Part shown: positions 26,920 to 60,488 of the stretch, piece by piece | Position numbering within the stretch: position 1 is the first letter of the stretch | Layout: every line of letters starts with the position of its first letter | DNA from: Barthelona sp. PCE | Taxonomy: Eukaryota | DNA: 64,000 nucleotides | Assembly: GCA_040285745.1 (NCBI GenBank) | Contig: JAUFOR010000006.1 | Location: 62,001 to 126,000, forward strand | Reading direction: 5' to 3' | The notes under the pieces: model-generated | The model's input: only the letters and a program-made list of their open reading frames with translations | Told to the model about the DNA's origin: nothing | Databases searched by the model: none | Made by a program: the position numbers and the translations under genes

Positions 26920-27486
26920 TTAGTTGGTCTCGTTGCCACGGACACGGGCCTGAGCGTTGGTAACGTAGATACCCCATTCCTTAGCGGCCTTGATAATCTC
27001 GACGCGCTTCTTGGCACTGACAGCGTGAGCAATCTCAGCAGAACAGATCTCAGTGTTGGTCTTGAGGACAGCGAGGTCCTTGACGTTGTGGACAACGAAT
27101 CTGTACAAACCGTTGGGAGCAAGATACTTAGTCTTCTTATCACTACCGAAACCAATGGAAACGTGCTTGCAACCGACTCCGCGGAAACGTCTTCTGAAGG
27201 CACCATCAATACCGTGAGGCTTTCTCCAGGAGGACTAAATGTGAGTATAATGAAAAAATATAACTGAACAGAACTATTTCTACACTTCAAAACCAAGATA
27301 TATCGCCCTTTCAAGGCAGGTATGTGCGTATGATATGAAGCAATAACCCGATTTGCAATGAGATATAGAAAAAAGTTCTTTCTTGACTTAACATACACCT
27401 ACACGCATAAATCTGTCAGATTGGAAGCGTTTGAAAGCGGCGGTGCGCTTCTTGACAATCTTTTTGGTGTTTGATGACTTAACCAT
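26920..27486 (-). CDS. RPL32: 60S ribosomal protein L32 (eL32), 2 exons (27486-27397, 27234-26920)
   Basis: Spliced product MVKSSNTKKIVKKRTAAFKRFQSDRFMRVG|SSWRKPHGIDGAFRRRFRG...IGFGSDKKTKY...AEIAHAVSAKKR, 134 aa. Confidence 0.95.
27235..27396 (-). other. Spliceosomal intron (162 nt) in RPL32
   Basis: GTATGT...ACTCACATTTAG; phase 0; removal restores the eL32 reading frame. Confidence 0.92.
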
Positions 27487-28924
27487 GGAAATAAAAGAAT
27501 GAAACTGAAAAGGAGCATTTCAGTATTATTTACTTAGTATGTATACATGTAATATTGGGAACAAAGTCATACAGCATAATGAATGGTGGGAATACGCAAT
27601 ATATCGCAAAAACAAAAAGCTTTCAAGTCATATCCCTATTCTGCAGCCATATTTACCAATTTAGTTAATCTCATGTCAACTTTTGATGTTGAACACTGGT
27701 TATCAAACCATGAATTGTTGAAGAGCAGGATAAATCGAATTTCAGGTTGGTTCAACGGTTAGTCTTATTTTGAGGTAGACCAAGATGAGATCTTAAGAGT
27801 GATGCCAGCCCAAAAGATGTTGAAATTAGCTATATATTCAATATCGAAAACCTGCTTGCACACGTTGGGAATCTTCCTTGAAAAGGTGATTCTACTATGC
27901 TTTGTAATGATAAACATCCGCGAATAGCGTGTTCATCATCATAAAAAGTGTATGAAACAGAAGGAGTTGGTGTGAATACCAAAATATGAAATTGGTTCTC
28001 AACCTATACAGTGACTCCGATGATTGATGTATCCCACGAAAAAAGTAAAATAAATGGTTTTTGTACCGTTTTTATTATGATTTATCGAAACAAGACAATA
28101 TTGTAAAGAATGGCGAAAAAACGGAGTAAGCCAATGACTAGAGCGATTACTTGCTCTTCTTCTTCATCAGACGTCTAAAAGTTAGGCTATATTGTTGTGA
28201 AAAAATGCTTCATACCTCTTGCGCTTTCTAGCTCTCATTCTCTTCTTTAACCACTTAGCACGCATTATATATAAACCTATAAATGTTAGTAAAGGGTAAT
28301 AAATATAAACTGGAACAGAAATGGTAAAACATTGTTACTGGTAAACTGTCTGCACTTTCCTACAGCCCTCACGTGCGTATTCCGGAGTGACAGTACCTAG
28401 ATGATGATCCAATATGATTTCACATACAAAGCAAGTTATATAAGCAAATAGAAGCTGTTACATCTTAGAAAGCATACGCCAATGTTCAAGATGGGGTAAA
28501 TCCAGGGTACAGGCGGTTTAATGCGCTCCACTACCCTCAATAATAAGATTCTGTTTGCCCGCATTTTTTTTTCTACATTTTGTTGTGTTTTGTAAATTAA
28601 TTACATGTTTAAGATATCAAACTATTGTTTTATCATGGCTAAACAATGAGAAATTCACTTTATTCAGTATAAATGTAAATAAAGCATATATAACTGCGTG
28701 ATTACAGTATCAGATCTTTATAATGCGTACATAAGAGCAATATAGTCATATTCACCTTTTAAAATACATACTTGTTGTCAATTCTTTTAGTTTCCAATAC
28801 TTTCCTGGATTATGGACATTACCTTCATATTAGTGATTTTTATTGCATATTAGCAACCTGATGTGGACTTATGGTGGATCTTACCCAGAGAATAGTTTGT
28901 TTGTTTTCTTTCTACCTCAAACAG

Positions 28925-40543: not shown

Positions 40544-41635
40544 ATGTCCGCTGCATCGAAGTCAACACGGTATGCTACTATTTTGCGTTTGAAACGCACT
40601 TTTAGAGAATTTCTAACATTTTGAAAAACTAAATCTAAAAAAGCAGCAACAGAAGAGGCTCTGGAAGAAGTATGCGTAGGCGACAATCACACATTCATTC
40701 AAATTGAAGAACTAGTTCGATCGGGAGTTGCAAAAGCAGATGCTAAAAAGTTACGTGATGCTGGTTTCTCAACTGTTGGTATGGTGCTGATGACACCACG
40801 CAAGGAACTTGTCAACATCAAGGGATTATCGGAAGGAAAGATTGAGAACATACTAAATCATTGTATTGAAATGGGCGGAGGTTTATTGAAAACAGGAAAT
40901 GAGATCAAACTTGAGCAAGAAACGAATATCCAGTACATTGAAACTGGATCTAAGTCAGTTGATCAGCTTTTAGGAGGAGGAGTGGAAACTGGAATTATTA
41001 CTGAAGTTTATGGTGAATTTCGTACGGGAAAGACTCAGTTGTGCCACTCGCTTGTGGTTAGTGCAGCTGTAGCTGGAAAAAAAGTAGCCTATATCGACAC
41101 AGAAGGAACTTTCCGTGCGGATCGTATCGAAGAAATTGCTATTGCTCGAGGACATGATGTAGAATATATATATGACTACATTGTGTATGCACGTGCGTAC
41201 ACTCACGAGATGCAAATGCAAATTCTGATTGATATAGCAAGAAAGATGTCAGAAGGTGATTTCCAATTGTTGATCGTAGATTCAATAACATCCTTGTTTA
41301 GAGTTGATTTTCAGGGTCGTGGAGAGCTCTCTGAGCGCCAACAGAAGCTAGGTGCTATGTTATCTCGTTTGATGAAAACTGCAGCAGAGTTCAATGTAGC
41401 TGTCGTCATGACAAATCAGGTTATGGCGGATCCAAGTGGAGGTGTGATGTCTTTTGGTGATGTTAAAAAGCCTATTGGAGGTCATATTCTAGCTCACGCA
41501 TCACATTGTCGACTTTATGCCCGTAAAGGAAAGGGTGAAAATCGTGTTATTAAATTAATCGATTCACCAAATCGTCCAGAAGGTGAAGCTGCTTATGTCA
41601 TATGTGAAGAAGGTATCAAAGATGGTTCTTTATAA
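40544..41635 (+). CDS. DMC1: Meiotic recombinase DMC1; proposed exons 40544-40569 and 40624-41635 (345 aa)
   Basis: GEFRTGKTQL, FRVDF.GRGEL.ERQQKL and GGHILAHAS are DMC1-type rather than RAD51-type. The conserved N-terminal domain (IEEL...G...AD.KKL.DAG) continues in frame upstream of the ORF-track start, back to 40625, with no ATG. Confidence 0.9.
40570..40623 (+). other. Putative spliceosomal intron (54 nt) with GT-TG boundaries
   Basis: GTATGC...TCTAACATTTTG; phase 2; restores the frame, whereas no AG from 40604 to 40679 does. Confidence 0.65.
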
Positions 41636-45497: not shown

Positions 45498-45771
45498 ATA
45501 TTACGAACACAAAGCTGCCCAATGCATCTGTTTGGATGTGAAAAGAGGAGTATTTGTCAAAAACAGCAATTAACTGATTGATGCTGCATTTACCTTTTTC
45601 GACCTTAAATTATATTTAAATAGAAACACCAATTAATGATAAAAATTGGACTCTAGTTCGACGCAAGTGTATTTTTTACTTGTTTTTTCAGATTCGATAC
45701 TTATCTTTTCTTATTCATAATTCAGTGTTATTTTTATTATTTACAAAAGGAAATTGAAGTATTCAACATTG

Positions 45772-47637
45772 TTACTTACCAGCCCAAACATCAGGAAAGT
45801 GAATTATATTGGCAGTATGAATAAATTTGAGTATATCAAACTCTTCTATCTTAACATCATCAAATGATGTAGCATTAAATTTCTTAATAATCATTTTTTC
45901 GTTCCTAATATTAGTTTGGTAAAAAACATCTGAATAAAATTCTGTTAACTGAGAGTGCGGAACCAATTGTAATATGTCATTTTCAAAATCACAATGATAG
46001 ATTTCTTCTCTGAAACAAAAGGAACGAGGTCCAGAAAAAAAACCACATGACACAGGAAATGGAGAAGCAAAACTTGAAATACGATTAAAATCACTGTCAA
46101 AAAGTACCAACTCACGAGTTGTTCCATCATATGCTACATATGGGTCCCAACGATTAAACGACAACTCCGAATCAATGTTCTTGATCAATTCTGGTGTGCC
46201 ATTTGAAATATAATAAACATTGGTTGTATTATCATAAAGTGTCACAAACAGATAATCTCCTGAGAACATGAAGTCTGTAATGTCGGCTACAGTGTGATAT
46301 TCAATGTTGTTCAACAAAAACGATCTATTATGCTTTTTAATTATATGATGCGTGTTCTCACTATCATAGTTATCGGATTCAGACACTATATCAGTAATTT
46401 CAGCATTTCTATCAGAAACAAGTACCTGTTGGTTGATATTATTGGTGCCAACTATTGCGAAACGATAACTTGCACTGAAACACTGACAGGGGTCAATCTT
46501 GATGATTGTGTCTTGTGAATTAATATTAGGAAACACATGTATCTCATTTACGTCAAGCAGAAATAAAGTAGGCCATGATTTCGTCATTCTTGATGAGAAA
46601 AAAATTGTATGATCATTGAAAAAAAGAGGGGATTGATACTTGGGCAACATCATCAGTACGTCTTCCTTTGATTTAGGAATAAATGTGTTGAATGACAAAT
46701 TGTCAAACGAGTACAAACGGCTACTGTATTCAAAAGGAAAAGATAACTCGCAGCTGATGTAGTCCATGCTTGGTGGAATCTCACCAATACTATTGATAGT
46801 TCCATTGTCAGTTAGTATCATATTGGCATATTTCTTTGCCGACATGAATGTAAACTTGGAGAGTCCTTCTGTTGCAAAAAGTAAAGCAACTCGGGAAGGA
46901 ATGAATTTGTCTGTTACGAAAGGAAACGCATCGTACTCTGTGTACAGATACGTAACCTCCTCCTCACACACCCTGTTACGTACGATAGCAGCAGTTATGT
47001 TTGCGCAGCAAGAAAGCACCTCATCACAAGGTATAAATCTTGCGTCGTTGAAAAAAAAAATGCCCCCTGAAAGCGCTACACCACCAGGAAAGAAAGATTT
47101 AACAGGGGAATCCGTCCAGTAGAAGTCAACGGTATGATTAATGAGCTCAGTAAGATCAAAATCAGTGTATGACGAGTAGTTGCTTTCATAAACTCTCTTA
47201 ATAATGGTATTCTTACTGAATATTACGAATAAAAAGGAAGATCTCGAAAGGCAGAAAATCTCATCTGTTGGAAAGGTTAAAGTTATGTTGTTGGTTATCT
47301 GCAATGATGGAAACTCCATGAACCAAATGTTGTGACGCCATCTGTCACCATTTTTGAGAGGTGGTATGATGCATTCAGGCTTGTAGCGGAGATTTAAAAG
47401 AGAATTGAAAGTTGTAGTATCTTGCCAACACCTGTGTATCTTTTTCTTTCCTTGAAATTCACCAAATTCTATTGGATAAGATGACTTTTGGAACAAAATA
47501 AACTGGTTGCAATCAATAAATGATGCATGCTGTGGGTTTTTGATCAGTGTAAAATGATTCACTCGTTCAGATACACAAAACTCAGAATTTTCATAATCTT
47601 TGTGAACATATTCATTAAAAATAAGTCGTCTGGGCAT
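45772..47637 (-). CDS. Orphan 'MPR' family protein, copy 3
   Basis: 621-aa ORF starting MPRRLIF; C-terminal IEEFDILKFIHTANI. Confidence 0.7.
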   Translation of the reverse strand: MPRRLIFNEYVHKDYENSEFCVSERVNHFTLIKNPQHASFIDCNQFILFQKSSYPIEFGEFQGKKKIHRCWQDTTTFNSLLNLRYKPECIIPPLKNGDRWRHNIWFMEFPSLQITNNITLTFPTDEIFCLSRSSFLFVIFSKNTIIKRVYESNYSSYTDFDLTELINHTVDFYWTDSPVKSFFPGGVALSGGIFFFNDARFIPCDEVLSCCANITAAIVRNRVCEEEVTYLYTEYDAFPFVTDKFIPSRVALLFATEGLSKFTFMSAKKYANMILTDNGTINSIGEIPPSMDYISCELSFPFEYSSRLYSFDNLSFNTFIPKSKEDVLMMLPKYQSPLFFNDHTIFFSSRMTKSWPTLFLLDVNEIHVFPNINSQDTIIKIDPCQCFSASYRFAIVGTNNINQQVLVSDRNAEITDIVSESDNYDSENTHHIIKKHNRSFLLNNIEYHTVADITDFMFSGDYLFVTLYDNTTNVYYISNGTPELIKNIDSELSFNRWDPYVAYDGTTRELVLFDSDFNRISSFASPFPVSCGFFSGPRSFCFREEIYHCDFENDILQLVPHSQLTEFYSDVFYQTNIRNEKMIIKKFNATSFDDVKIEEFDILKFIHTANIIHFPDVWAGK

Positions 47638-47870
47638 ATGAAATCAGTGAAACGGGTAAGACAATGAACAACGTTTTTTCAACCTTTTCATTTCTGATGG
47701 AACGAATCTTTTCCAATTTATTTCCATCACAAAAAAGCATTAATAGTTATCAAGAAGATAAACTTAATGATTTGATGGCATACTTGTACACGGGGTTTTT
47801 TTCCAGTGAATGAAGATCATGAATTCAACTTGCAATTAGATTACTCGTTCGACCATTTTGTTTTTATAAA

Positions 47871-48822
47871 GGACATCGAGGTAAACTAGGGCTAATACAT
47901 GTACAAAAATCCAACTCACGAAGGATTGCATATATTAGACTAAACCAACCCAGCTTTCATTAGCTGACTTAGGTGAATCATAATATATTCGCTGATCGTT
48001 GTCTCTTGACGCGACGTATCATTTAAATCTCTGCCCTATCATACTTATTCGTAGGATAGAGGCCTACGAAGGTGTTGACGGGTAACGGAGAATCAGGGTT
48101 CGATTCCGGAGAGGGAGCCTGAGAAACGGCTCCCACTTCCACGGAAGGCAGCAGGCGCGAAAATTTTCCAATCCTGACTCAGGGAGAAGGTGACAAGAAA
48201 TAACAACCGTAGGCACTATGTGTCCCGGCATGTAATGGTTTAGGTGTAAATAGACCTTTAGAAAGCAATTGGAGGGCAAGTCTGGTTAACTCCAAGTTTG
48301 AGAGCGGCACTATGGTTATTAATTTGTTTGTAAAGCATCAGAAAAAAAGCGAAACCTTTTTCCTCCTTTTTCTTTTAAAACATTTAACAACTTTTAGTAC
48401 TCAAATTTCCAGCCAGATGTCGAGAAGCATAAAAACTAATCGGCAAAAATTCAGAGTTGAGAACTGAATATACATGTGTAAATTGCGGGAAACTCCTAAA
48501 GCTAACACAACCGCGGTCTTGAAGCAATTCAAGATGCAGCAGCAAGAGTAACTTCTTGTGGATGGTAAAATCGTGTTAGATGAACTCTACTGCCCTGAGT
48601 TCGTTGTAATGGACAATCCGCATCCAAGCTCCTCATGTAGGAGAAGGTTCAGAGACTATAATCACGTGGGGTTCTTCGGAATCTTAAGGTATAGTCCATT
48701 CCCACTCGAGAGAGTGCTTTATAGTTATTAACTTGCCTCACAAGCTAGGGCTATAAGGGAAACATTTACTGTTTCGGTAGTAAAGGCCAGCAGCCGCGGT
48801 AATACCAGCTCCAATAGCGTAT
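47871..48822 (+). rRNA. Isolated partial eukaryotic SSU (18S) rRNA gene fragment interrupted by a group I intron; 5' boundary approximate
   Basis: Conserved 18S blocks GCTAATACATG, CTGCCCTATCA, GACGGGTAACGG..AATCAGGGTTCGATTCCGGAGAGGGAGCCTGAGAAACGGC, GGAAGGCAGCAGGCGCG, TTGGAGGGCAAGTCTGGT|GCCAGCAGCCGCGGTAATACCAGCTCCAATAGCGTAT. The 18S 5' end and everything 3' of this block are missing. Confidence 0.92.
48287..48785 (+). ncRNA. Group I intron, subgroup IC1, at SSU position 516 (499 nt)
   Basis: Exon U before and terminal G at the end. P AAATTGCGGGAA (48480-91), Q AATCCGCATC (48615-24), R GTTCAGAGACTATA (48647-60), S AAGGTATAGTCC (48686-97). IGS GCCAGA (48412-17) pairs with exon TCTGGT. P2, P2.1, P3, P5abc, P6, P8, P9, P9.1 and P9.2 can all be paired. 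Confidence 0.95.
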
Positions 48823-48884
48823 TTTACCTATTTTGGCTGTTTTGAGAACCAGAACGAATCACTGTTTGATGTGTTATTGTTGGG

Positions 48885-51800
48885 TTAGAAAGAAACTCGT
48901 TGTTCTTCAGTAAATGGAATGCCGGATTGTGTTGGCTCCATTTCCATAAAGTTGGGTGCGAACATATCGACCTCATATGTACTCTTCTGCTCCACCTTCT
49001 TATTTAGGTAAAGAGCTCCAATAACAAAGATGGTGATAAATATTGCAATCAGTACAAAGCCGAAGTAGGAAGTTTCCTCCTCAGGTTCGGGTTCAGGATC
49101 GGTGACATAAGTACCGGTCTCGACGTTACACACGGATCCAGATGACGACTGGACACCGCACACATCATAGAACGTGAACTCAACAACGGAAGGGTTGGTT
49201 CCAGCCATGTCGTCAGCCAGGAGCACGAGGGCGGAGCCCCCAGTACGAGGACCGAGGGATTTAACAACCTTTCCATCAAGGGACACACCACCGAGTTCAG
49301 CGGGCAGACGCAGAACGTCGAGTGTTTCAGTATCAATAACGAAACCAACAGTTGTACCGGTGACGGGGTTCGTGCCGTATGTGGCGAGCTTAGAGCCAAA
49401 TTTCCAACCACCAGTGAGACCAGCGAACGCGACATGCGCGTCATTAACGTCATTCTTGGTGACGACACCTGAGCGAGTGTTGACTACGTACATCACCTGA
49501 GTTACGGGCTTACCACCGAACATGTAAATGTCATCATCAACGACGATCGTTGATGCGGCGGCAGGAACTGTATCCTTGAGAGAGACTGTGAGAGTGCTCA
49601 TGAACACATTATCGATCTTGAAGAGGAGCGATGAGTGCGCAGTCTTACCCATGATGAAGAAGTGCGTTTCGGAGGCAGCGAGGGAGGCGTCGGAGAGCTC
49701 TGCAACATCGGAAGCGATGGGGATCGAGTCCATGTAAATTGTTGAAAGTTCCCAATCGACTGTGAGTACCTGAAGTGTTGCCTTCTGGTCGGCATCTACA
49801 CATACAATGCGTGTCGTGGTACCGGTGGTAGATGCACGTGATGCTGCGCAATTGCCGATGAAGTCGGTTGCGGTTGTTGTCACGGACATGGTGTACTCAT
49901 CCCATCGGTCGTCAGCCTCGACGTAGCGCTTCACGTAAGGCATAATGTCGCTTACGATGAAGAGATCGCCATCGTAAGAAACAAGAATATCACCAGAAAC
50001 GGTTTGAGGAGCAGTTGCCTCGACAGCGAACGGATCAACCTCGACAGGAGGCTTAGTGCCAATGGTCGTGGTGGAGTGTTGGCCGACAATGGTTAATCCA
50101 TCATCGTCAATGGTGAGGTGACCTGCACTCAGAAGAGTGGTGTCGGTCTGAATGTACTCAATGGTATGTGAGTTTTCAGAGACGTTAACAATGGCAGCGT
50201 GTGTTGCATTCAATGTGGGACACACAATAATGACATCGTTGTCAAATATGTTCACTGAAATGGCAGGACACTCGATATCGATGGGATCATAAGTAACCCA
50301 TCTATTATCCGGAAGGTACCCGTAAAGCTTGAGCTGGGTGTCAGCGTGCACTACAACATTACTGTGCCTGGCTGACTTTGCATCAAAGATCGCAGATGGA
50401 CCGAGGTTCGGACTATCGGTGATGTTCACAGTTGAAAGATTCATTGAAGGCATATCCATGAACACATGGTTACTACCGACAAAGAGGATGCCGTCAACAA
50501 CACCAATACCAATTGAATTAGGAGCAATAGAGATAGCACCATTTGAGGGAGCTGAAACTGGTTCCCATTCTTTCGCGCTGAAGCTGAACACCTTAATCAC
50601 ATCATCATGGTAGATTACAAACTCTTCTTGGACAAAAACATGAACAACATCACCCTCAAGTGCTTCGGAAATCTTCTCATCCTCGTTATTGGTGATACGA
50701 TGAATCTCAGCGTCATCAAGAATAACATAAGTGTTGTTACCGATGATCACTGATAAAACAGGCTCGGAATCAAAGCTATTGATGCGTTTGTAGAACACAG
50801 AGTTAGATTCATCCAACGTGACTTGCTCATCGCACTCATCGCCGGTCCAACCGTGCTTACATTGACACTCCTTATCCTTGTTGCAGAAACCGTTGGCGGG
50901 GCAGACAGGGCACTTGGGAATGGCCTCGTCGCACAGAACACCTCGGAAATCGGCATCGCACTCACAGCGCTCGGGGGCTACGCAAGTGCCGTGGACACAC
51001 GTGGAGCTACAGATAGGAACGTCGCACAAATCGCCTTCCCAGCCGTTCTTACATTCGTCGCAGCTAGCACCGGTGAAGGTACCACTACAGACGCATGTGT
51101 CAGGGGCAACACAGTTACCCGCACAGTCGTTACAGACGGGGACATCGCAGTTAGCGCCAGACCAGCCTGCGCGACACACGCAAATAGGATCGGAAAGTGA
51201 CTCGTTACAGAAAGAGTTGCCCTGGCAGTCGATGAGACATGTCTTGATGACTGTATTGTTCTCAATGCGGTAGCCGGGTAGGGTTTGATCGCAAAGACCA
51301 CCAGTGGTTCCCTCTTCACAGAGGCACATGCCGTCACCAGTTATGGTATCGTTACAGGATCCCTGGACACAAGCAGGACACTTCTCGCACTTTGCACCGA
51401 AGTATCCGGCATCGCATAGAGTGCAATCTCCATTAGAATCCTGAACGAGACCCTGGATACACTGATCACAGTTAGAACCCTCGCGTCCAGGTTCACAGAC
51501 ATCACACAGCGTACCAGTCCAATACTGGTTACACTCGCAAACACCATCACCAGTGATAGTATCGTTACAGGATCCCTGGACACATGTAGGACACTTCTCA
51601 CATGTTGCACCGAAGTATCCGGCATCGCAGAGTACACATTCGTCGTTGCTGTCAACTATAACTCCCTCAACACACAGGGAACAATCTGAGCCTCGACGAC
51701 CTGGAATGCACTCATCGCAAAGTGCACCAGACCAGTACTCATCGCAAATACACTTACCGTCACCGGAAGCGGTATCGCTACAGTGGCCGTTGTCGCATGA

Positions 51801-54800
51801 AGGACAAACTGTACAGGCAGCACCGAATCGATTGTTCATACAAACGTCACACACACCACCTGCGCTGGAGTTGAAACCAGTTGCACAAAGGCACGTGTTG
51901 TTTCCGGTGATTCCGTCAAAAACAACACCACCGGGTCCGCAGTCACGGGCGAGCTCACAAGAAGCACCGACATATCCGGGCATACATGTGGAACAGTTTG
52001 TACCGGGGTTGTAGCCTGCGGGACAGAGACACATACCTGATCCGGAAGTACCATCGTCGCATGTACCGCCGTTTTCGCAAGAGCGACATGGGATGGCGTT
52101 GGGACCATAATAACCAGAGTCGGTTTCTGAACAATCAGCGCCGGTGTAACTCTCGTTACACACACAGCTGCCGTTGCCGTTGAAGCCATCGAACAAAGTG
52201 CCGTGGATACAAGCGCCAGCCGCGATACATTCAGATGAGTAGTATTTGGGGATACACTCATCACAATCAGTACCAGTACGGCCGAACTCGCACATGTTAC
52301 ACAGAGTACCGGTGAAGTACTGCTCGCACTGACAGGTTCCGTTACCAGCACCATCAAGACACGTACCGCGCTCGCAGGGAGGACATGTGATACAGGCAGA
52401 GCCCTGTTCGTAGTAACCGGAGTTACAAGTGTCACAAAGCTCACCGCTGTATGCGTCAGAGACACACACAAGAGCACCAGTTCCGGTGATTCCGGCGTCA
52501 CAGATACCGTTGGGGGATTCGAGAGGACATGGCTCGCAGTGCTCACCGTAGTGGTTACGGACACACTCGTCGCAGTCTTCGCCAAAGAAGGTCGATCCGC
52601 AGCTCATTGACTTGGTAATGAACGCAGCGAAAGTACCAGTTTCAGTACACGTGAACGATACTGTACTTGCGAAAGGTGCGTATGTGATGGAGCACTGGGC
52701 AGGAACCCAAGTCTCGCCATCGAAACGCATGACAGTAATGTCAGATGCAGTGATGTTCTTCTCGTATGAGCCCACAACAGCAGTCTCAATATTCACTGCA
52801 CTAATTTCAATATCAATCAGTTCTGACGTACCCTGGTTTGTACTGACAGTTAACATATCTGTGAATGATACCAATGATGTAGGTATGTCCATATCCATGC
52901 ATTTGCGTGATATACTTATTAAAGAAAGAACAGTTGAAACAGCTGGACTTGCTGTTTCAGCAACAACAGGTGTCAGGTCACCAAAGGACTTCAGTTCAGT
53001 GACAGCTGCGGCAGCTGAGTGAAATTTAATAAAAGTAAACTCACGAACATACTCAATTCCATCGATCATATTTTCCATGACTATAGCTGACGCCTTCTTC
53101 ACAAGGGTATTGGCGTTAGCGAACAGACTACTGTTATAAAAATCTCGTGATTCGAGAGTAACATACATTGTATCTATCAATTCCAATGCTTGGAAACTAG
53201 CCAGTATTTTTTCTTGAGTGGTATCAGAAACCAGGAAGTTATCCAAGGCGATGGATATGGTGTCGATGACAGTATTCAAAAGAGCAGTAGACGAGTCTGC
53301 ACCAACTAAAGGCATAATGTTTTCAATAATATTTGAAGGAGATTGTTCTCCAATCAAGTCAAAGGTGGCCATCAATGATACATAGTCGACATAAACAAGC
53401 AAGTGGTCCATATCCATGGCATTGATGTCATCCTCTGTTAAATCCAATAAATTATCTCCTCCTCCAGCATTGATTGGCGTTCCTTTGTAATCTAAATCAG
53501 ACATTTTCGGAAACTCAACATCATAACCATACTTTGATCTTTCCAACATTCTAACAATTGTATTCGTAATATAGTTACTGATATGATTTGTTTGTTGTGC
53601 TTGAGCAGATACCGGAAGTTTAGTCTTACAGAATTCTTTAAACTGACTAGATGACACAGCAATTGAATCAATATCACTGCTATCCATCTCAGTTGCAACA
53701 GGTGCCTCCCCAAAATCAACAACAGCAGTTTGAATGTCACTAATTTCAAGATCACGACTTGTGATTTCAACGAAAAATGTAACATTTCCTGTGAACGGTA
53801 GAGCATTCTTTGTTATAAAGTCTCTAACAGAATCCATGGTTTTTAATATTGTTTTACGGCCTGTAACAGGGTGCATGTAGCCATATTTAAAAGAAAATCT
53901 TGGTCTAGGAACAATAGATTGGGCTAGAAAAGCTGGTGGATAAGAATTTTCAAGTTCAGGCTTATCAGGTACATAAGATAATTCAACATTACCACTATTG
54001 CTCAAGGTGGCATTGAATTCACCGCTTGCATCAATACAATGAGTTGAAAAACGTAGTTTATCAATGAAATCTCGTGTATCACTTGAACCTATTATGCTAC
54101 ATGTAGCCTGAAATTCAAATGTTGAACATGGAAGAATCATTTCATTAAGCAGTTCAAAACGATCCGACCATAAACGTGTTGCTTTAATATGTTGAACTGT
54201 AGCTGATGAAGCTCCTAACTTAAAAGCAGGATATAATTTAGTTATCCAATTAGTTTTAAACTTTGGTAAAACCATATAAACATCCCATAAATCAGTCTCA
54301 ATATTCTTTATCATATCATCAGAGAAACCTACGTAACGATCTGATTCTGTTGGTGGACCATCAATACTAACGACTTCGAAGGTACAGTTAAGCCTATCTT
54401 CAAAATTACGAGGAACAGCCTTTATCAGAATATTCTCAGAATAAGGGGCAATTTTTTCCACATCACGAATAGAATTGGCGACTTCAAGATCAAATGAACC
54501 GACTGTAACTGTTTTATATACTTCAATTTCGACGGTTAATGAGGTGTTACGACCGGAGTCGATATGAGAAACTGTTACAGTGATATCTAAATCACTGTTA
54601 TCATACATTTGTTCTAGAGCTGTCTTTGGCACGAGTATATTGTTTGATTTTATACTTGCAACAGTGGTATCACACCATTCATTAGCATATGTGATCCCGC
54701 TACTGTTTGTAAGTGAACAAGACCATTCTATAGACAAATGATCATTGCCAGCTATTGATGGATCAAAGATCGTTGTAGAAATCATTAATTCCTTATCAGG

Positions 54801-57800
54801 TGTACCAATAAGAGCAGTTTTAGCCGTGTGTATCTTAATATCACTGTATATAGAAGAGAATTCAATATTTGAAAATGTTTGGGTGCATAACTCTCCGTTT
54901 TCACTCTTCTTGAATGTAACACTGAAATTATATGAATAAATACCAACTGGAAGTGTAATAGGAACACTACTCAAAGAATGACCGGCTCGTTTTGTGAAAC
55001 CAATATCAACCGTAGGTCCAAAATGTTGTGATGTAACTTCCTTAATGAAATGAGAGGAAGTTTTTGAAGTTTGAGTAAACTTAAGCGACATTTTATCCCC
55101 GTTACTAATAACCTTATCGTAAGAAAGAGCTGCGGTTGGGCAAAAATCAGCATCTCTAATATAAAATGAACAAGAATCTGAGTGAACAGAACCAAAAACA
55201 TCAGTAAATACTACTTCGAACGTGTAATCGTCCTCTGTCAGCGTGTCAAATGCTAAGTCACTGAAATCAGTCTCAGTCAAAATAGGAGTTGCACCCTTCT
55301 TGACTGTGTAAGAAAACCCAGACACATCACCATCATTACAATGCAATCCTCTATCAAGACGGAATTTAACCGAAGATAGGTCAGAACCTGTTAACACACG
55401 TTTGTCACAAAATGCAGGAAGGCTAAATGTGGGGTTCAAAATATTCCCGAAAGAAGAAGAACCCGATAGAGTTACATTGATATATTGTGGTGTTGTACTT
55501 GCACGGAAACTACCAAAGTCTCCATAAGGCATAATTACAACAAATTGATTAGAATACCCTCGATCACCAAAGTAAACCCAGTTCCTTGATGATCCTTGTT
55601 TGAGTAAATATTCTGTACAACCACCAGGATGTGAAAGGCCATGATAGCCGTAATAGTTCTTAACTAAGATTGCAGAATCCTGCCACATTGGTATGAACCT
55701 CCTTATCGGTGCTATGAATTCAATCATTAGATTATTTCTAAAATTCATACTACTTATAATAGGATATATTTTTAACTTCTTTGAAGTCTGTGAAGCAATA
55801 TCACGGTTTCCAGGATAAGATATTAAGTCAATTGTAGATTTTATCGTCTTTGTACCAATACCCATATCTGCACAATTTGTTATACTCAAATCTACATAAT
55901 TAACATCGTTTATGTTGTATATAAACGTGATAGACTCAGCATTCCAATTGCCAATGTTACATCCATCTGTGTTACGTCTTGCAAAAACATAAGGACAATC
56001 GAGAGCACGCATTTCAACTGTACAACGATCTGTTACAAGAGAAGGCACTGTGATTTCAACGGTGAGTGGAGTATCTCTATCATAATAGTACTTTTTAATC
56101 GGAATTCGCTGAACATACCCATTAATAACTGAGATGTACTCTCTGTTATTTTCACCCATCCACACTGTATAGTTCGTGATGAATGTAACCCTTTTATCAA
56201 CGATTGTTTCAACACCATGTTTGATAAGAACATCGCAATAGGAAAAATGTTTTAATTCTTTGGTAACGGCAGGTATTGATAAGAAATTATGGCTTGTATT
56301 AACATATGACCAAGTCTCACCGGTTCCATTGAGACATTGGACATCAACATCGAACTCACCATCAACATAACTTTTATCTATAATCTCAGCATATGAAGAT
56401 CCTAAAGCTTGACCACTTTGTTCTTCAACAAGATTAAGATTAATGCTAATTGAATATGATTTAACACGCCTGACAAGGGATCTGATGATGATATCGGGTG
56501 AGAAACCTGTAACAAAACCATAACTATCAATAATCTTGATTCCATGTACCAAACTTATCTGACAATTTCCAATTTGTGACAGTTTAAAAGCGTAGGGGTA
56601 TCTTCCCTTTGCGTTAAAACGGCCTAGTTGCAGAATATCACTCTTTTTCCCATCACAAGCGTATTTTAAATAGAGTACAGATGCTTTGTAATATGGTACA
56701 CTTTCTTTTTGGAACGTGGCACTCACAACACCACTTAAAATATCGTTGCGGCGATAAAATGAATTCATATGACCAACTTTTGTTTGAAAAGGTGCACTAA
56801 CAGTGAAATCTAGATCAATGTTTTGTAAGCACTGACCTGTAATTTTATCTAATCTAAAGTCATCCAAACATCTGCAGACATCAGGAGCAACACATGATGA
56901 AAATTTTGGACAAAATGGACAAATTGGTGAGGCACCTAAACTGTTATCTTTAATATCAACCCATTGATAGCCAGTTTTAGGAACACATGCTTGATAACTA
57001 GAATTAGTACGCACGCATTCTGTGCCTGATATGTCATGACAATCCAGTGTACATGCCTCTACACATAATGTTCCGTCAAGGTTTTCTTCAAAACCAATTA
57101 GGCAACCAAAAACTCCTGCACCAATACACTTGCTATTATCAGGAAGATAATTACAAACGGGATCACAAGATCCATCAACGAATTCATACCCAGCAGGACA
57201 ACCAGTAATACTAAAGAGAGGATCACAAAAAGACTCCGGTGATTCACAGTTTGTACAAGTTCCATTTCTGTTGCATATACCAGTTGCACAATCACCAGGA
57301 CAAGCAAATTCCAACGATATTTCAGTTCCCACCCAATCAGCTTGAATCATAATATATAAATCATCTTTATCAAAGGGTATTTCGACAGCACGTGTGTAAC
57401 CTTGACTGCTAGTCATATTAAACATTGCTATGTAATCGTTGATGTCACTTAGCTGGAAAGAACCATCAAAATATGAGGTTGGGCGTATGGTTGATACTTG
57501 AACCCAAGCAAATCGGACAGAAGTGTAGTAACCTGGTACTGTTGGTCTTTGAATCTTGATAACGAGGGGAATAGATGCATTATATACATCTTTAGCTGTC
57601 TGTAAATGTGCTAAATCTTGTTTTGAAAAATGGAACACCGTTGGATACATTCGCTCATTTTCACTTACATTAAAAGCCCATTGGCCATCTGCAGCTTCTA
57701 ATAACCGGTACTCACAGCGCTCTCCGTAGTATTTGTCTGTGTTACATGAACAATCAGAGCTTCCAGCTACATTACCATCACCTTCTCTACAAAAAAAAGT

Positions 57801-60488
57801 TTGATCTTCAATACTCAACGTCATATCAACATATTGCGTTGAATACAACATCATGTTGACGTCTATACCATTCAAAAATGGCATATCCATGTTAGGAGAA
57901 TTAAAAGCTATTTGTCCTTCACGACCAAGACGTTTTCTATCCATATTTGCGGTACTATCAAATAATAAAGCTCCTGCATATGCATCCAACACACTTCCGT
58001 CTTGACGAGTACCAGTTATTCGACCTAAATAAGCCTTATTTGATAGAACATGTCCGACAGTAAGTTTTGGTGACGTACTAATGTTTCCAAGAGAAGCATA
58101 TGTCATTTTGTATGTTGTTGGCCTATAAGCGACCCATGGTAAAGGATTGTTAATAGCATCACCAGGTAAAGGATCAAAATCGTGGAAAGAAATGGAAGAA
58201 ATTTGTTGAGGATATTCTATGCATATCATTACAGTTACATTGACTCCAGGATCAAATATTTCTTGTGAATAAGATGTAGAAATGAATCTAGAAGTACAAC
58301 GCATTTCATTAATTTTAATGTTATTACCAACGGCAGCATCATAATATAATCCATTTGACATTGTCAAAATTTTTCTGCCACCGTCATCTGGCATAGTTGT
58401 TTTAAATATACAACCAGCAGTGTAACCTTCAAAAACAATACATTTATAAGTATTTGTTTCAGAAGGAAATGGAATAATACCTTCATCTTTTAGAAACAAC
58501 GGAACAGCGTGTTGGTTACCAGATGAATAAGTTGACAGAGCTGTTGCATAACCAGTTCTATCAGAAAGATATCGCGTATAATCACCATCCAATGTTCCTG
58601 ATGTTAAACATGATGATAAACTGTAAGATGTTGCACCTCTATGGAAATGACTGTTACTGTGGATTGTGGTACATGCACCTATTAAATGAAGATTATTAGG
58701 GATGCCTTTTCCTTGGATTAGCAAAAATCCAGAATTATCGTCAGAATTCCAGTACAACTCATCAGTTATATGATTAATAATCATTTGTTTAGGAACATAA
58801 ACACTTATTTGAGAATCGTATCCTGGTGCATCATCTGAATAGTAAACATAGTGTTTTAATGGAGAAAATGACATGAATTCAAAATTGGATCTACCCTTAA
58901 AAGGAGATGTTGAAGTGAATTGTCCTCTATGTATCATCACCACTGTTTGAGCTGGAACAACCATTTTAATAAGTTGATTGGCCATGGAATAAGGTAGTTT
59001 ATGATTGTCAAATTCAAAATGTCCAGGGGATTTTTTCAGAAAATCTATAAAAGTATCTCTATGAGCTGGTACATCATCAATATAAAAAGAAGTTAGAACT
59101 ACACCAGAGTTATTTTCTAAATAATAGCAAGCAGAAGGAACAATATCATTCTTGTAATGGTGAATGAGTGTTTCAGTAGAAAATATTTCATAAAGGTAAT
59201 TGTCGTGTGTTGGTGTAAACCAATTAGTCTCACAATTATGAGACACTTTGAGTGTTAAATCAGTGATAAGAGATGAACTGTAAATATACGATAGTCTGGA
59301 TCTAAACATACGTGACACTGTGCTGTAATCTTTAATCATATAGTTTGGATTTGAATTGATCATTCCCTTTTGAATAACACTAGCTTGTTTTCTAAGAGAC
59401 AAAGGATCATTGTGGCTCTTAAAAACAAATGTATAATAGTAACTACGTTCTTTTTTGAAAAATGTGTGACCTTCTTTAGCAAAATATGTCCTCACAGAAT
59501 ATAAAGAATCTCGAGAAAGTGAAAGGGTGTTCAAATCAATGGTCACCAAATCACCTCGCGTAAACATTGTTCCTAAAGTGTGTAATAAGTTATCTTCTTC
59601 ATCGAAAAGTTCAACTGTTATATCAAAGACAGATTCAGGAAGTTTAGGGATACCATATGTGAGCGTATCAACAAGCAAGTCGAAGGAATCAGTCGTGGAA
59701 TCGAAGGAAAGCTTGAGTTCAGTCTCGTAATGAGGGAATGTTTTATCAACCGCAACAATAGGTCTACTATGCGTTGAAATCTCAATTTCACAGTGTTTTC
59801 CTGCAAAACCCGACGCACAAGCACAGTAAAATGTTGATAACCCATCTGGAACAACACCTCCATTCTCACATGAAATTGGAATAGTGTTAGTTGCAAAAAT
59901 TCTGCCTTTTTCTTCTGTATCCAAATCTGAATATGATGCCCAGAAACCTTCAAATACCTCAGGGACATATATGGGAAGACTGACCATAAAACCACAACCA
60001 TCATGTTGAGTGTAAGTTTCATCTATATAAGGAGTACTGATATTTGCTTCTATAACTTCAAAACTAAGATAGCTCTTTGATGAATTACCGCAAACAAGTG
60101 ATTCTACGGTTATATCATTGACTACTACACATGAATTACAACTATATGTCCCGAAATCGTCATATTTCCATTCAAGTGAAGGTACGGGAACGTATTTAAG
60201 ACTGTTATATGTTGTTACTGTTATTCCATCGTAGAAATAATCCTCAGAATAACTGTAAAATACTGCACTCTTTGAAAAACATGTGTGCTGGGGGCATGGA
60301 TGTTTAAACCCAGAATGTGGGAAAGAAATCTGATCAACAGCCACTATCTTACCAAACATACTCCAAACTCTACCCCTTTCTGTTGAATGTAGCTCAAAAC
60401 CGTATACATCTTTTGGCGCTAGGTTTTCAAATGCAGAAATGCATATAAATAGTGCAAAAACAGCTATGAATGTACAGAAAAGACCCAT
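48885..60488 (-). CDS. Giant type-I membrane surface protein (3867 aa): signal peptide, EGF repeats, REJ/GPS-like region, laminin-EGF array, Kelch-like region, TM helix, short tail
   Basis: N-terminal signal peptide; many CxCxxG(F/Y/W)xGxxC motifs; DP...L..EWSC (REJ-like); W...C...FTCTETGTFA (GPS-like); IYMFGG (Kelch-like); TM FGFVLIAIFITIFVIGALYL. Confidence 0.85.
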   Translation of the reverse strand: MGLFCTFIAVFALFICISAFENLAPKDVYGFELHSTERGRVWSMFGKIVAVDQISFPHSGFKHPCPQHTCFSKSAVFYSYSEDYFYDGITVTTYNSLKYVPVPSLEWKYDDFGTYSCNSCVVVNDITVESLVCGNSSKSYLSFEVIEANISTPYIDETYTQHDGCGFMVSLPIYVPEVFEGFWASYSDLDTEEKGRIFATNTIPISCENGGVVPDGLSTFYCACASGFAGKHCEIEISTHSRPIVAVDKTFPHYETELKLSFDSTTDSFDLLVDTLTYGIPKLPESVFDITVELFDEEDNLLHTLGTMFTRGDLVTIDLNTLSLSRDSLYSVRTYFAKEGHTFFKKERSYYYTFVFKSHNDPLSLRKQASVIQKGMINSNPNYMIKDYSTVSRMFRSRLSYIYSSSLITDLTLKVSHNCETNWFTPTHDNYLYEIFSTETLIHHYKNDIVPSACYYLENNSGVVLTSFYIDDVPAHRDTFIDFLKKSPGHFEFDNHKLPYSMANQLIKMVVPAQTVVMIHRGQFTSTSPFKGRSNFEFMSFSPLKHYVYYSDDAPGYDSQISVYVPKQMIINHITDELYWNSDDNSGFLLIQGKGIPNNLHLIGACTTIHSNSHFHRGATSYSLSSCLTSGTLDGDYTRYLSDRTGYATALSTYSSGNQHAVPLFLKDEGIIPFPSETNTYKCIVFEGYTAGCIFKTTMPDDGGRKILTMSNGLYYDAAVGNNIKINEMRCTSRFISTSYSQEIFDPGVNVTVMICIEYPQQISSISFHDFDPLPGDAINNPLPWVAYRPTTYKMTYASLGNISTSPKLTVGHVLSNKAYLGRITGTRQDGSVLDAYAGALLFDSTANMDRKRLGREGQIAFNSPNMDMPFLNGIDVNMMLYSTQYVDMTLSIEDQTFFCREGDGNVAGSSDCSCNTDKYYGERCEYRLLEAADGQWAFNVSENERMYPTVFHFSKQDLAHLQTAKDVYNASIPLVIKIQRPTVPGYYTSVRFAWVQVSTIRPTSYFDGSFQLSDINDYIAMFNMTSSQGYTRAVEIPFDKDDLYIMIQADWVGTEISLEFACPGDCATGICNRNGTCTNCESPESFCDPLFSITGCPAGYEFVDGSCDPVCNYLPDNSKCIGAGVFGCLIGFEENLDGTLCVEACTLDCHDISGTECVRTNSSYQACVPKTGYQWVDIKDNSLGASPICPFCPKFSSCVAPDVCRCLDDFRLDKITGQCLQNIDLDFTVSAPFQTKVGHMNSFYRRNDILSGVVSATFQKESVPYYKASVLYLKYACDGKKSDILQLGRFNAKGRYPYAFKLSQIGNCQISLVHGIKIIDSYGFVTGFSPDIIIRSLVRRVKSYSISINLNLVEEQSGQALGSSYAEIIDKSYVDGEFDVDVQCLNGTGETWSYVNTSHNFLSIPAVTKELKHFSYCDVLIKHGVETIVDKRVTFITNYTVWMGENNREYISVINGYVQRIPIKKYYYDRDTPLTVEITVPSLVTDRCTVEMRALDCPYVFARRNTDGCNIGNWNAESITFIYNINDVNYVDLSITNCADMGIGTKTIKSTIDLISYPGNRDIASQTSKKLKIYPIISSMNFRNNLMIEFIAPIRRFIPMWQDSAILVKNYYGYHGLSHPGGCTEYLLKQGSSRNWVYFGDRGYSNQFVVIMPYGDFGSFRASTTPQYINVTLSGSSSFGNILNPTFSLPAFCDKRVLTGSDLSSVKFRLDRGLHCNDGDVSGFSYTVKKGATPILTETDFSDLAFDTLTEDDYTFEVVFTDVFGSVHSDSCSFYIRDADFCPTAALSYDKVISNGDKMSLKFTQTSKTSSHFIKEVTSQHFGPTVDIGFTKRAGHSLSSVPITLPVGIYSYNFSVTFKKSENGELCTQTFSNIEFSSIYSDIKIHTAKTALIGTPDKELMISTTIFDPSIAGNDHLSIEWSCSLTNSSGITYANEWCDTTVASIKSNNILVPKTALEQMYDNSDLDITVTVSHIDSGRNTSLTVEIEVYKTVTVGSFDLEVANSIRDVEKIAPYSENILIKAVPRNFEDRLNCTFEVVSIDGPPTESDRYVGFSDDMIKNIETDLWDVYMVLPKFKTNWITKLYPAFKLGASSATVQHIKATRLWSDRFELLNEMILPCSTFEFQATCSIIGSSDTRDFIDKLRFSTHCIDASGEFNATLSNSGNVELSYVPDKPELENSYPPAFLAQSIVPRPRFSFKYGYMHPVTGRKTILKTMDSVRDFITKNALPFTGNVTFFVEITSRDLEISDIQTAVVDFGEAPVATEMDSSDIDSIAVSSSQFKEFCKTKLPVSAQAQQTNHISNYITNTIVRMLERSKYGYDVEFPKMSDLDYKGTPINAGGGDNLLDLTEDDINAMDMDHLLVYVDYVSLMATFDLIGEQSPSNIIENIMPLVGADSSTALLNTVIDTISIALDNFLVSDTTQEKILASFQALELIDTMYVTLESRDFYNSSLFANANTLVKKASAIVMENMIDGIEYVREFTFIKFHSAAAAVTELKSFGDLTPVVAETASPAVSTVLSLISISRKCMDMDIPTSLVSFTDMLTVSTNQGTSELIDIEISAVNIETAVVGSYEKNITASDITVMRFDGETWVPAQCSITYAPFASTVSFTCTETGTFAAFITKSMSCGSTFFGEDCDECVRNHYGEHCEPCPLESPNGICDAGITGTGALVCVSDAYSGELCDTCNSGYYEQGSACITCPPCERGTCLDGAGNGTCQCEQYFTGTLCNMCEFGRTGTDCDECIPKYYSSECIAAGACIHGTLFDGFNGNGSCVCNESYTGADCSETDSGYYGPNAIPCRSCENGGTCDDGTSGSGMCLCPAGYNPGTNCSTCMPGYVGASCELARDCGPGGVVFDGITGNNTCLCATGFNSSAGGVCDVCMNNRFGAACTVCPSCDNGHCSDTASGDGKCICDEYWSGALCDECIPGRRGSDCSLCVEGVIVDSNDECVLCDAGYFGATCEKCPTCVQGSCNDTITGDGVCECNQYWTGTLCDVCEPGREGSNCDQCIQGLVQDSNGDCTLCDAGYFGAKCEKCPACVQGSCNDTITGDGMCLCEEGTTGGLCDQTLPGYRIENNTVIKTCLIDCQGNSFCNESLSDPICVCRAGWSGANCDVPVCNDCAGNCVAPDTCVCSGTFTGASCDECKNGWEGDLCDVPICSSTCVHGTCVAPERCECDADFRGVLCDEAIPKCPVCPANGFCNKDKECQCKHGWTGDECDEQVTLDESNSVFYKRINSFDSEPVLSVIIGNNTYVILDDAEIHRITNNEDEKISEALEGDVVHVFVQEEFVIYHDDVIKVFSFSAKEWEPVSAPSNGAISIAPNSIGIGVVDGILFVGSNHVFMDMPSMNLSTVNITDSPNLGPSAIFDAKSARHSNVVVHADTQLKLYGYLPDNRWVTYDPIDIECPAISVNIFDNDVIIVCPTLNATHAAIVNVSENSHTIEYIQTDTTLLSAGHLTIDDDGLTIVGQHSTTTIGTKPPVEVDPFAVEATAPQTVSGDILVSYDGDLFIVSDIMPYVKRYVEADDRWDEYTMSVTTTATDFIGNCAASRASTTGTTTRIVCVDADQKATLQVLTVDWELSTIYMDSIPIASDVAELSDASLAASETHFFIMGKTAHSSLLFKIDNVFMSTLTVSLKDTVPAAASTIVVDDDIYMFGGKPVTQVMYVVNTRSGVVTKNDVNDAHVAFAGLTGGWKFGSKLATYGTNPVTGTTVGFVIDTETLDVLRLPAELGGVSLDGKVVKSLGPRTGGSALVLLADDMAGTNPSVVEFTFYDVCGVQSSSGSVCNVETGTYVTDPEPEPEEETSYFGFVLIAIFITIFVIGALYLNKKVEQKSTYEVDMFAPNFMEMEPTQSGIPFTEEQRVSF
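51334..51629. repeat. Intragenic tandem duplication, 213-bp period (EGF module)
   Basis: 51334-51416 and 51547-51629 are near-identical (CDAGYFGAxCEKCPxCVQGSCNDTITGDG). Confidence 0.9.

Follow-up and report, generated by a model that had tools for sequence, protein, structure and literature searches.

We found that a 952-bp piece of ribosomal DNA, interrupted by a group I intron of intact appearance, lies between two protein-coding genes in the genome of the flagellate Barthelona sp. PCE, and we think it probable that this piece is a truncated, intron-bearing rDNA copy, presumably the host's own, that was inserted into a spacer of about 295 bp and has stayed there as a non-functional relic with an intact-looking ribozyme. 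The window that we analysed is the whole stretch of 64,000 nt from positions 62,001-126,000 of the forward strand of contig JAUFOR010000006.1 (assembly GCA_040285745.1), and all coordinates below are counted within it. The piece is read on the plus strand and is composed of 416 nt of small-subunit (SSU) 5' exon, a 499-nt insert and 37 nt of 3' exon, bearing out the sizes (about 415, 499 and about 37 nt) that a first-pass annotation of the letters had given. In our assessment the observation is real, placed at the right coordinates and unusual, while its likeliest explanation is an ordinary one.

Barthelona sp. PCE is now named Microbarthelona vorax, a metamonad that is grown together with bacteria in monoprotistan culture and whose partial SSU rDNA is available as GenBank LC506390, as given in the passages of its description that deal with taxonomy, culture and sequences (PMC13087550). 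Its genome of 10.2 Mbp, called the smallest among free-living eukaryotes, was assembled from Nanopore reads and polished with Illumina reads, with 66x Nanopore coverage and a mixed culture as the source (PMC11316075, passages on the genome and its assembly). The gene content of the window is eukaryotic, with Pfam families in the products of 13 of its 19 ORFs; these families include tubulin-tyrosine ligase, Rad51/DMC1, RNA polymerase I A49 and a condensin subunit. Among the same ORF products, Pfam revealed no viral genes beside the rDNA piece.

A scan of all 64000 bases on both strands against Rfam (cmscan, gathering thresholds) gave two matches in total, one to the SSU rRNA and one to a group I intron. 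The SSU_rRNA_eukarya match covered 47761-48295 of the plus strand with 247.5 bits and model positions 34-594 of 1831. At gathering thresholds the 64 kb contained no further rRNA, 5.8S and LSU being absent, and a permissive scan of 45500-50500 (E up to 1) added nothing further. The claim that the piece lies outside any rDNA unit thus stands for the 64-kb window, in which 5.8S, LSU and the remainder of the SSU are lacking, and it holds for that window only. As placed by cmscan and blastn, the 5' exon is an SSU rRNA fragment of about 416 nt (47871-48286, plus strand) that corresponds to about Rfam model positions 150-565 and terminates in GTCTGGT at 48286, the last base being equivalent to E. coli U516. 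The 3' exon (48786-48822, plus strand) consists of 37 nt from the SSU 530-loop region and starts with GCCAGCAGCC at 48786. When the exons were compared by blastn with five environmental SSU loci, the 5' exon was 73-83% identical to them over 168-334 nt, and the 3' exon was 94.6-95.1% identical to four of the five over 37-41 nt, after which the similarity stopped.

The piece ends abruptly on both sides, at about 47871 and at about 48822. The cmscan alignment had drawn the SSU match further upstream, through 47761-47870 of the plus strand, and we rejected this extension as unsupported and treated it as spacer. The region 47640-47875 taken alone had no SSU match among 11 weak matches (E up to 10), and semi-global alignment of 47761-47870 to the 5' ends of three environmental SSUs scored at the level of shuffled sequence (z = -0.05, -0.71 and -0.05), as the alignment score was reached by 548, 828 and 538 of 1000 dinucleotide shuffles. 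On the other side, 48823-48884 appeared faintly SSU-like by eye and was likewise rejected, with 1054 of 2000 and 564 of 2000 shuffles reaching the observed score. We also rejected the idea of an old relic in which decayed rDNA edges surround a homogenised centre, because both edges score like shuffles. The motif ACC(T)ATTTTG occurs near both ends, at chance level for a target-site duplication (an equally good match arose in 1177 of 5000 shuffles and in 1399 of 5000 random spacer pairs), and there is no poly(A) tract at the piece. The short repeats around the piece in general look like chance.

The position of the insert within the SSU gene could be fixed to the nucleotide. The intron (48287-48785, plus strand) is 499 nt long and ends in G, as delimited by the full RF00028 model and by the adjacency of its exons in blastn. 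Window positions 48268-48286 and 48786-48826 aligned to directly adjacent SSU positions in four of the five environmental loci, namely L123 (1095-1113, then 1114-1154), L124 (529-549, then 550-589), L126 (605-585, then 584-548) and L127 (560-542, then 541-501); in the fifth, L125, blastn gave no alignment at the insert site. Because the flanks are neighbours in these four loci, the insert sits cleanly at one SSU phosphodiester bond, with no exon base gained or lost, exactly at the junction that had been claimed for it. This GGT/GCCAGCAGCC junction is what we take to be E. coli 516/517 (S516), with the numbering derived from the standard 515 primer site. By sequence and site criteria we would call the element an S516-type group I intron that has been preserved in an rDNA pseudogene.

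The first-pass annotation had proposed an Infernal comparison with RF00028 as a check on the intron, and this comparison gave a full-length match: Intron_gpI aligned to 48385-48718 of the plus strand over model positions 1-253 of 253, scoring 69.4 bits, above the gathering score of 50, with an E value of 1.6e-15. A comparison set was taken from viral loci, where scanning 20 loci out of 122 yielded 14 RF00028 matches in 10 of them. These matches span 52.8-82.2 bits, and since the score of the intron falls in the middle of that range, its core is not visibly eroded.

All helices described here are on the plus strand. By sequence reading and the minimum-energy fold, P1 is formed by the last seven exon bases (48280-48286) and the internal guide sequence at 48412-48418, and the resulting 7-bp helix is closed at the 5' splice site by a U48286-G48412 wobble. 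A putative P1 extension (48294-48408), assigned from the same reading and fold, consists of 9 bp (48294-48302 with 48400-48408) around an A/T-rich insert of about 97 nt. The helices that follow are tentatively named P2 (48419-48423 with 48440-48444, from sequence reading) and P2.1 (48449-48454 with 48464-48469, from reading and the hairpin list). P3 (48473-48478 with 48663-48668; reading and cmscan) contains two non-standard inner pairs in the cmscan register, and six pairs including one G-U in the register of the first-pass annotation. P4 (48484-48489 with 48617-48622; cmscan, fold and hairpin list) encloses P5 and a branched P5 extension, in which the hairpin at 48516-48535 with its GCAA loop (fold and hairpin list) is P5b. 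P6 (48624-48647; cmscan) has one pair flagged as non-standard, and P7 (48654-48658 with 48692-48696; reading, cmscan and hairpin list) encloses the 3' strand of P3 together with P8 (48669-48684; reading, cmscan and hairpin list), which is capped by a UUCG loop. P9, whose loop is GAGA, occupies 48703-48716 (reading, cmscan, fold and hairpin list) and is followed by 3' hairpins up to 48784, where the segment 48759-48784 has two alternative folds; the terminal G of the intron, from sequence reading, is at 48785.

The cmscan alignment supports P3, P4, P5, P6, P8 and P9 as well as the conserved J6/7-P7 and P7' strands. All of the ribozyme elements named in the earlier reading (P3, P4, P5b, P7, P8 and P9, the loops, the U-G pair and the terminal G) are found in the sequence, and the helices among them agree with the cmscan alignment, with the hairpins of the minimum-energy fold and with the hairpin list. 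P2, P2.1, an extended branched P5 and GNRA loops L5b and L9 can be drawn, and the layout looks IC1-like. No frame of the size of a homing endonuclease was present in the intron, the longest stop-to-stop frames within or across it measuring 59-84 aa.

The minimum-energy fold of the intron was weakly better than that of its shuffles (z = -1.93; 5 of 100 shuffles did equally well). Hairpin richness was rejected as a mark of retained structure, as 352 and 158 of 1000 shuffles reached the hairpin content of the intron; it has 7 hairpins with 52 bp, and seven control stretches of the window have 3 to 8 hairpins. Because these fold and hairpin statistics are weak, it is the covariance model and the features of the splice sites, and not thermodynamics, that justify calling the intron structurally intact. 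The intact look could also stem in part from the Illumina polishing of the Nanopore assembly, since reads from the true, multi-copy rDNA can overwrite a diverged copy.

The surroundings of the piece are those of an ordinary intergenic spacer. Its upstream neighbour is an ORF of 621 aa on the minus strand (45772-47637), without a Pfam family, whose start codon at 47637 faces the insert; its downstream neighbour is an ORF of 3867 aa, also on the minus strand (48885-60488), with EGF-type matches and a stop codon at 48885, 62 bp from the insert. The rDNA piece is on the strand opposite to both genes and lies, just as had been described, between the start of the one and the stop of the giant other. 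The spacer between these ORFs (47638-48884) measures 1247 bp, and subtraction of the 952-bp piece leaves about 295 bp; gaps between long ORFs elsewhere in the window are 274 bp (45497/45772) and 227 bp (60488/60716). Because the ends are sharp and the remainder of about 295 bp is typical of the local gaps between long ORFs, we regard the piece as an insertion into a normal spacer. Ectopic capture, one of the two origins suggested by the first-pass annotation, fits these sharp ends and this spacer arithmetic (1247 - 952 = about 295 bp), and to that extent the suggestion stands. Its other suggestions, a ribozyme cassette retained at the locus or a relic of intron transfer, gained no support.

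No close relatives of the exon or the intron were found in the metagenome, viral (best 40 of 110 matches), prokaryote and protein collections. An exact 22-mer of the intron core had 0 matches in metagenome contigs, and a 22-mer of the exon V3 hairpin had 0 matches in prokaryote genome contigs. A 26-nt exon signature retrieved five metagenome loci, all of them ordinary SSU genes that were 73-83% identical to the piece in the aligned parts. An 18-mer of the J6/7-P7 core was present in at least 122 viral contigs, and when the whole piece was compared by blastn with 122 viral loci, the best 40 of 110 matches showed core similarity of 25-79 nt, all of it within window positions 48608-48716, with 77 nt at 78% as the best match. 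As blastn of the whole piece gave short core matches alone among these best 40, we consider the 18-mer to be a widespread group I core motif and rejected it as a sign of kinship. Spurious ORFs were also tried as a lead to a second copy and discarded, the 84-aa frame across the exon-intron junction having no homologue in the protein collection.

The 5' exon is divergent. Aligned with the five environmental SSUs it was 59-69% identical over about 390-400 columns, and it had 35 mismatches at 219 columns that are invariant in the five, compared with 0 to 50 for those SSUs when each was left out singly. In the cmscan alignment the exon helices keep paired changes, for example in the halves GGGAGCC/GGCTCCC. 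Divergence of this degree is equally compatible with a fast-evolving lineage, with decay of the copy and with a foreign donor; a divergent exon with paired changes suits a long-branch lineage such as a metamonad, without being proof of one.

We propose that a fragment of intron-bearing SSU rDNA, for which the flagellate itself is the most likely source, was captured into the spacer between the two protein genes, and that the likeliest route would have been end-joining repair of a chromosome break, as for organelle DNA that enters nuclei. The host would be the simplest donor, since the culture is monoprotistan, as stated in the culture description (PMC13087550). The piece is derived from rRNA, truncated and located outside an rDNA unit within the window, as an rDNA pseudogene or "orphon" would be; it is incapable of making ribosomal RNA and is probably a silent relic of this type. 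Its ribozyme may look intact because the piece is of sufficiently recent origin or has undergone sufficient correction. If the plus strand were transcribed, the RNA should possess everything required for self-splicing: guanosine would be expected to attack after U48286, which the guide at 48412-48418 fixes in P1, and the exons would next be joined after G48785. Publications on barthelonid SSU sequences contain no mention of an intron in their main texts, nor in four supplement files of the first of them. The main text of the genome paper (PMC11316075) mentions no group I intron, rDNA or rRNA, and three of its supplement files contain one unrelated occurrence of "rRNA".

Other origins of the piece have to be weighed against capture of the host's own rDNA. 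A foreign donor, meaning that the rDNA of another eukaryote or a virus-borne copy was integrated and survives as a relic of horizontal S516 transfer, is unlikely in our view. It would agree with the silence of the barthelonid SSU publications on any intron, with the lack of nuclear group I introns of metamonads or Fornicata in the open-access literature as far as titles and the openings of abstracts indicate, and with the passages of a survey of S516 introns that report horizontal transfer and whose listed hosts exclude metamonads (PMC9223047). However, the culture is described as monoprotistan with bacteria (PMC13087550, culture passage). Metagenome contigs, moreover, hold no near match to exon or intron (0 matches; five loci at 73-83%), viral contigs share with the piece 25-79 nt of intron core alone among the best 40 of 110 matches from 122 loci, and the divergent exon with its paired helix changes suits a long-branch lineage like that of the host. 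Still less likely is a remnant left in place, in which a former complete rDNA unit or array edge was reduced by deletions to the present piece and nothing was inserted. Truncated rDNA units are common at array edges in eukaryotes, and neither a target-site duplication nor another mark of insertion was found here; but the genes on either side are ordinary protein genes whose spacing, with the piece taken out, is ordinary as well, no SSU trace continues past either end, and neither 5.8S nor LSU has left a remnant in the 64 kb, the relaxed scan near the site (E up to 1) included.

Retained function, with the plus strand transcribed (for example from a divergent promoter of the gene at 47637) and the ribozyme splicing so that its RNA or the splicing itself is used, we judge very unlikely. 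The ribozyme core and the peripheral hairpins are without obvious damage, useless DNA might be expected to be lost from a 10.2-Mbp genome (PMC11316075, genome-size passage), and intergenic group-I-like "18S intronic" sequences of tupanvirus are described as highly expressed in the relevant passage of PMC5829246. Against this, the fold energy is weakly better than that of shuffles (z = -1.93, 5 of 100 as good), the hairpin content does not exceed that of shuffles or of other stretches of the window, the intron has no coding frame, and its intact look has simpler causes in youth or polishing. We put forward as a long shot the full form of this proposal, in which the piece is alive, transcribed from the divergent promoter of its neighbour and self-splicing, and is kept because the RNA or the splicing serves the cell. 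An assembly artefact, with a chimeric read or mis-join placing rDNA in the contig, has an equally slender chance: although rDNA is multi-copy and prone to chimeras and the assembly is based on Nanopore reads of a mixed culture, the piece is just 952 bp within a contig of 688,707 bp and has intact genes on both sides, and at 66x Nanopore coverage an artefact would need many concordant long reads and would have had to survive polishing (PMC11316075, assembly passages).

Capture of the host's own rDNA, our preferred explanation, would imply that an S516 intron is, or was at one time, present in the rDNA of a barthelonid, which would add a further eukaryotic supergroup to the hosts of these mobile ribozymes and provide a dated "fossil" for asking whether the rDNA has since lost the intron. 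A foreign origin would instead make the piece a physical trace of intron transfer with the exon flanks included. With either donor, the locus would be a natural test case for the expression and splicing of a group I ribozyme from a non-nucleolar locus. If it is a young pseudogene that was smoothed by polishing, it would be a curiosity and a caution for the annotation of rDNA in compact genomes, and if it is alive, no nuclear group I ribozyme known before it would have worked outside an rRNA gene, and none would have come from a metamonad.

Both components of the piece, an S516 group I intron and a dispersed rDNA fragment, belong to kinds already described, and the host group and context are not described in the open-access literature that was searched. 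Nuclear group I introns are, in the words of a review, "exclusively found within functional rRNA genes" (PMC3679873), in agreement with the premise of the first-pass annotation that they are normally confined to rDNA. S516 is likewise documented as a nuclear group I site, as had been assumed, and the host list of the S516 survey names fungi, algae, amoebae, amoeboflagellates and myxomycetes, with introns of subclass IC1 or IE (PMC9223047). The finding is unusual because nuclear group I introns are said to be exclusive to functional rRNA genes and because metamonads are absent from that host list.

Dispersed rDNA orphons and pseudogenes, like nuclear copies of organelle DNA, are truncated pieces of multi-copy genes at unrelated sites. 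Orphons and break-repair captures resemble the Barthelona piece in being truncated in the same manner, in lying at an unrelated site and in having sharp ends without target duplication. We know of no described orphon with a complete group I intron, and a search of the open-access literature for an orphon or rDNA pseudogene with a group I intron returned nothing relevant.

The "18S rRNA intronic regions" of mimivirus and tupanvirus are similarly group-I-like, intergenic and outside rRNA genes, and they are reported to be expressed; in the passages that describe them they have no 18S exon (PMC5829246), whereas the Barthelona piece has both exon flanks. The viral regions are found in giant-virus genomes, while the Barthelona locus is part of a cellular genome and has cellular neighbours. 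A region of the mimivirus type is marked by the lack of an exon and by a giant-virus genome, and on both points the Barthelona piece differs.

The nearest counterparts are the nuclear S516 introns of subclass IC1 in myxomycetes, Naegleria and other amoeboflagellates, amoebae and red algae, which likewise interrupt the SSU 530-loop region. They share with the Barthelona intron the P3-P9 core, the U-G pair, the terminal G and the GNRA loops on P5b and P9, and the helices drawn here as a peripheral P2/P2.1 and a branched P5 extension may correspond to theirs as well. However, S516 IC1 introns are found in functional rRNA genes, whereas the Barthelona intron is contained in a truncated fragment between protein genes and does not reside in a functional rRNA gene, since its exon context is reduced to about 416 + 37 nt. 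It further stands apart in its host, as Metamonada are unlisted, and in having no homing endonuclease gene, second ribozyme or repeat array. A 4-bp match between two loops (48458-48461 and 48737-48740) could represent the weakly conserved P13 mentioned in the S516 survey (PMC9223047), and by a rough estimate a P13-like match of 4 bp would be expected by chance about 1 time in 20.

The first bases of the group I intron (48287-48296, TAACTCCAAG) are similar to a stretch of the 3' exon (48806-48816, CAGCTCCAAT), and because of this resemblance the SSU alignment from the Rfam covariance-model scan ran 9 nt into the intron. The likeness between the intron start and the 3' exon is probably due to chance. 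Among the five environmental SSU loci on metagenome contigs that served as exon references, one (L125) stood apart from the other four, with 50 differences across 269 columns that do not otherwise vary, the 530-loop region being among the places affected; this copy may be a pseudogene or represent a very divergent lineage.

The 18-nt group I core motif (J6/7-P7) was present on more than 122 viral contigs in IMG/VR, many of which belong to giant-virus bins. Several viral contigs (e.g., those of loci L018, L047 and L078) carried two to three group I introns within 2 kb.

Only one spacer in the window, a gap of ~1.47 kb at 27399-28870 that lacks any ORF of at least 150 aa, exceeds the length of the spacer that holds the rDNA piece, and it had no Rfam match at gathering thresholds in the whole-window scan. 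A Rad51/DMC1-type ORF of 284 aa is located at 40781-41635 on the plus strand. As the NCBI protein with the identical sequence has a length of 332 aa, compared to 284 aa for this ORF, the gene as annotated must start upstream of 40781; it probably opens with a short first exon, followed by an intron, inside the 357-bp gap after 40424. The minus-strand ORF at 48885-60488 encodes, as a single reading frame, 3867 aa with EGF-type domains near residues 3121-3224 and a hydrophobic stretch close to the C-terminus, and occupies ~18% of the window in a genome of 10.2 Mb.
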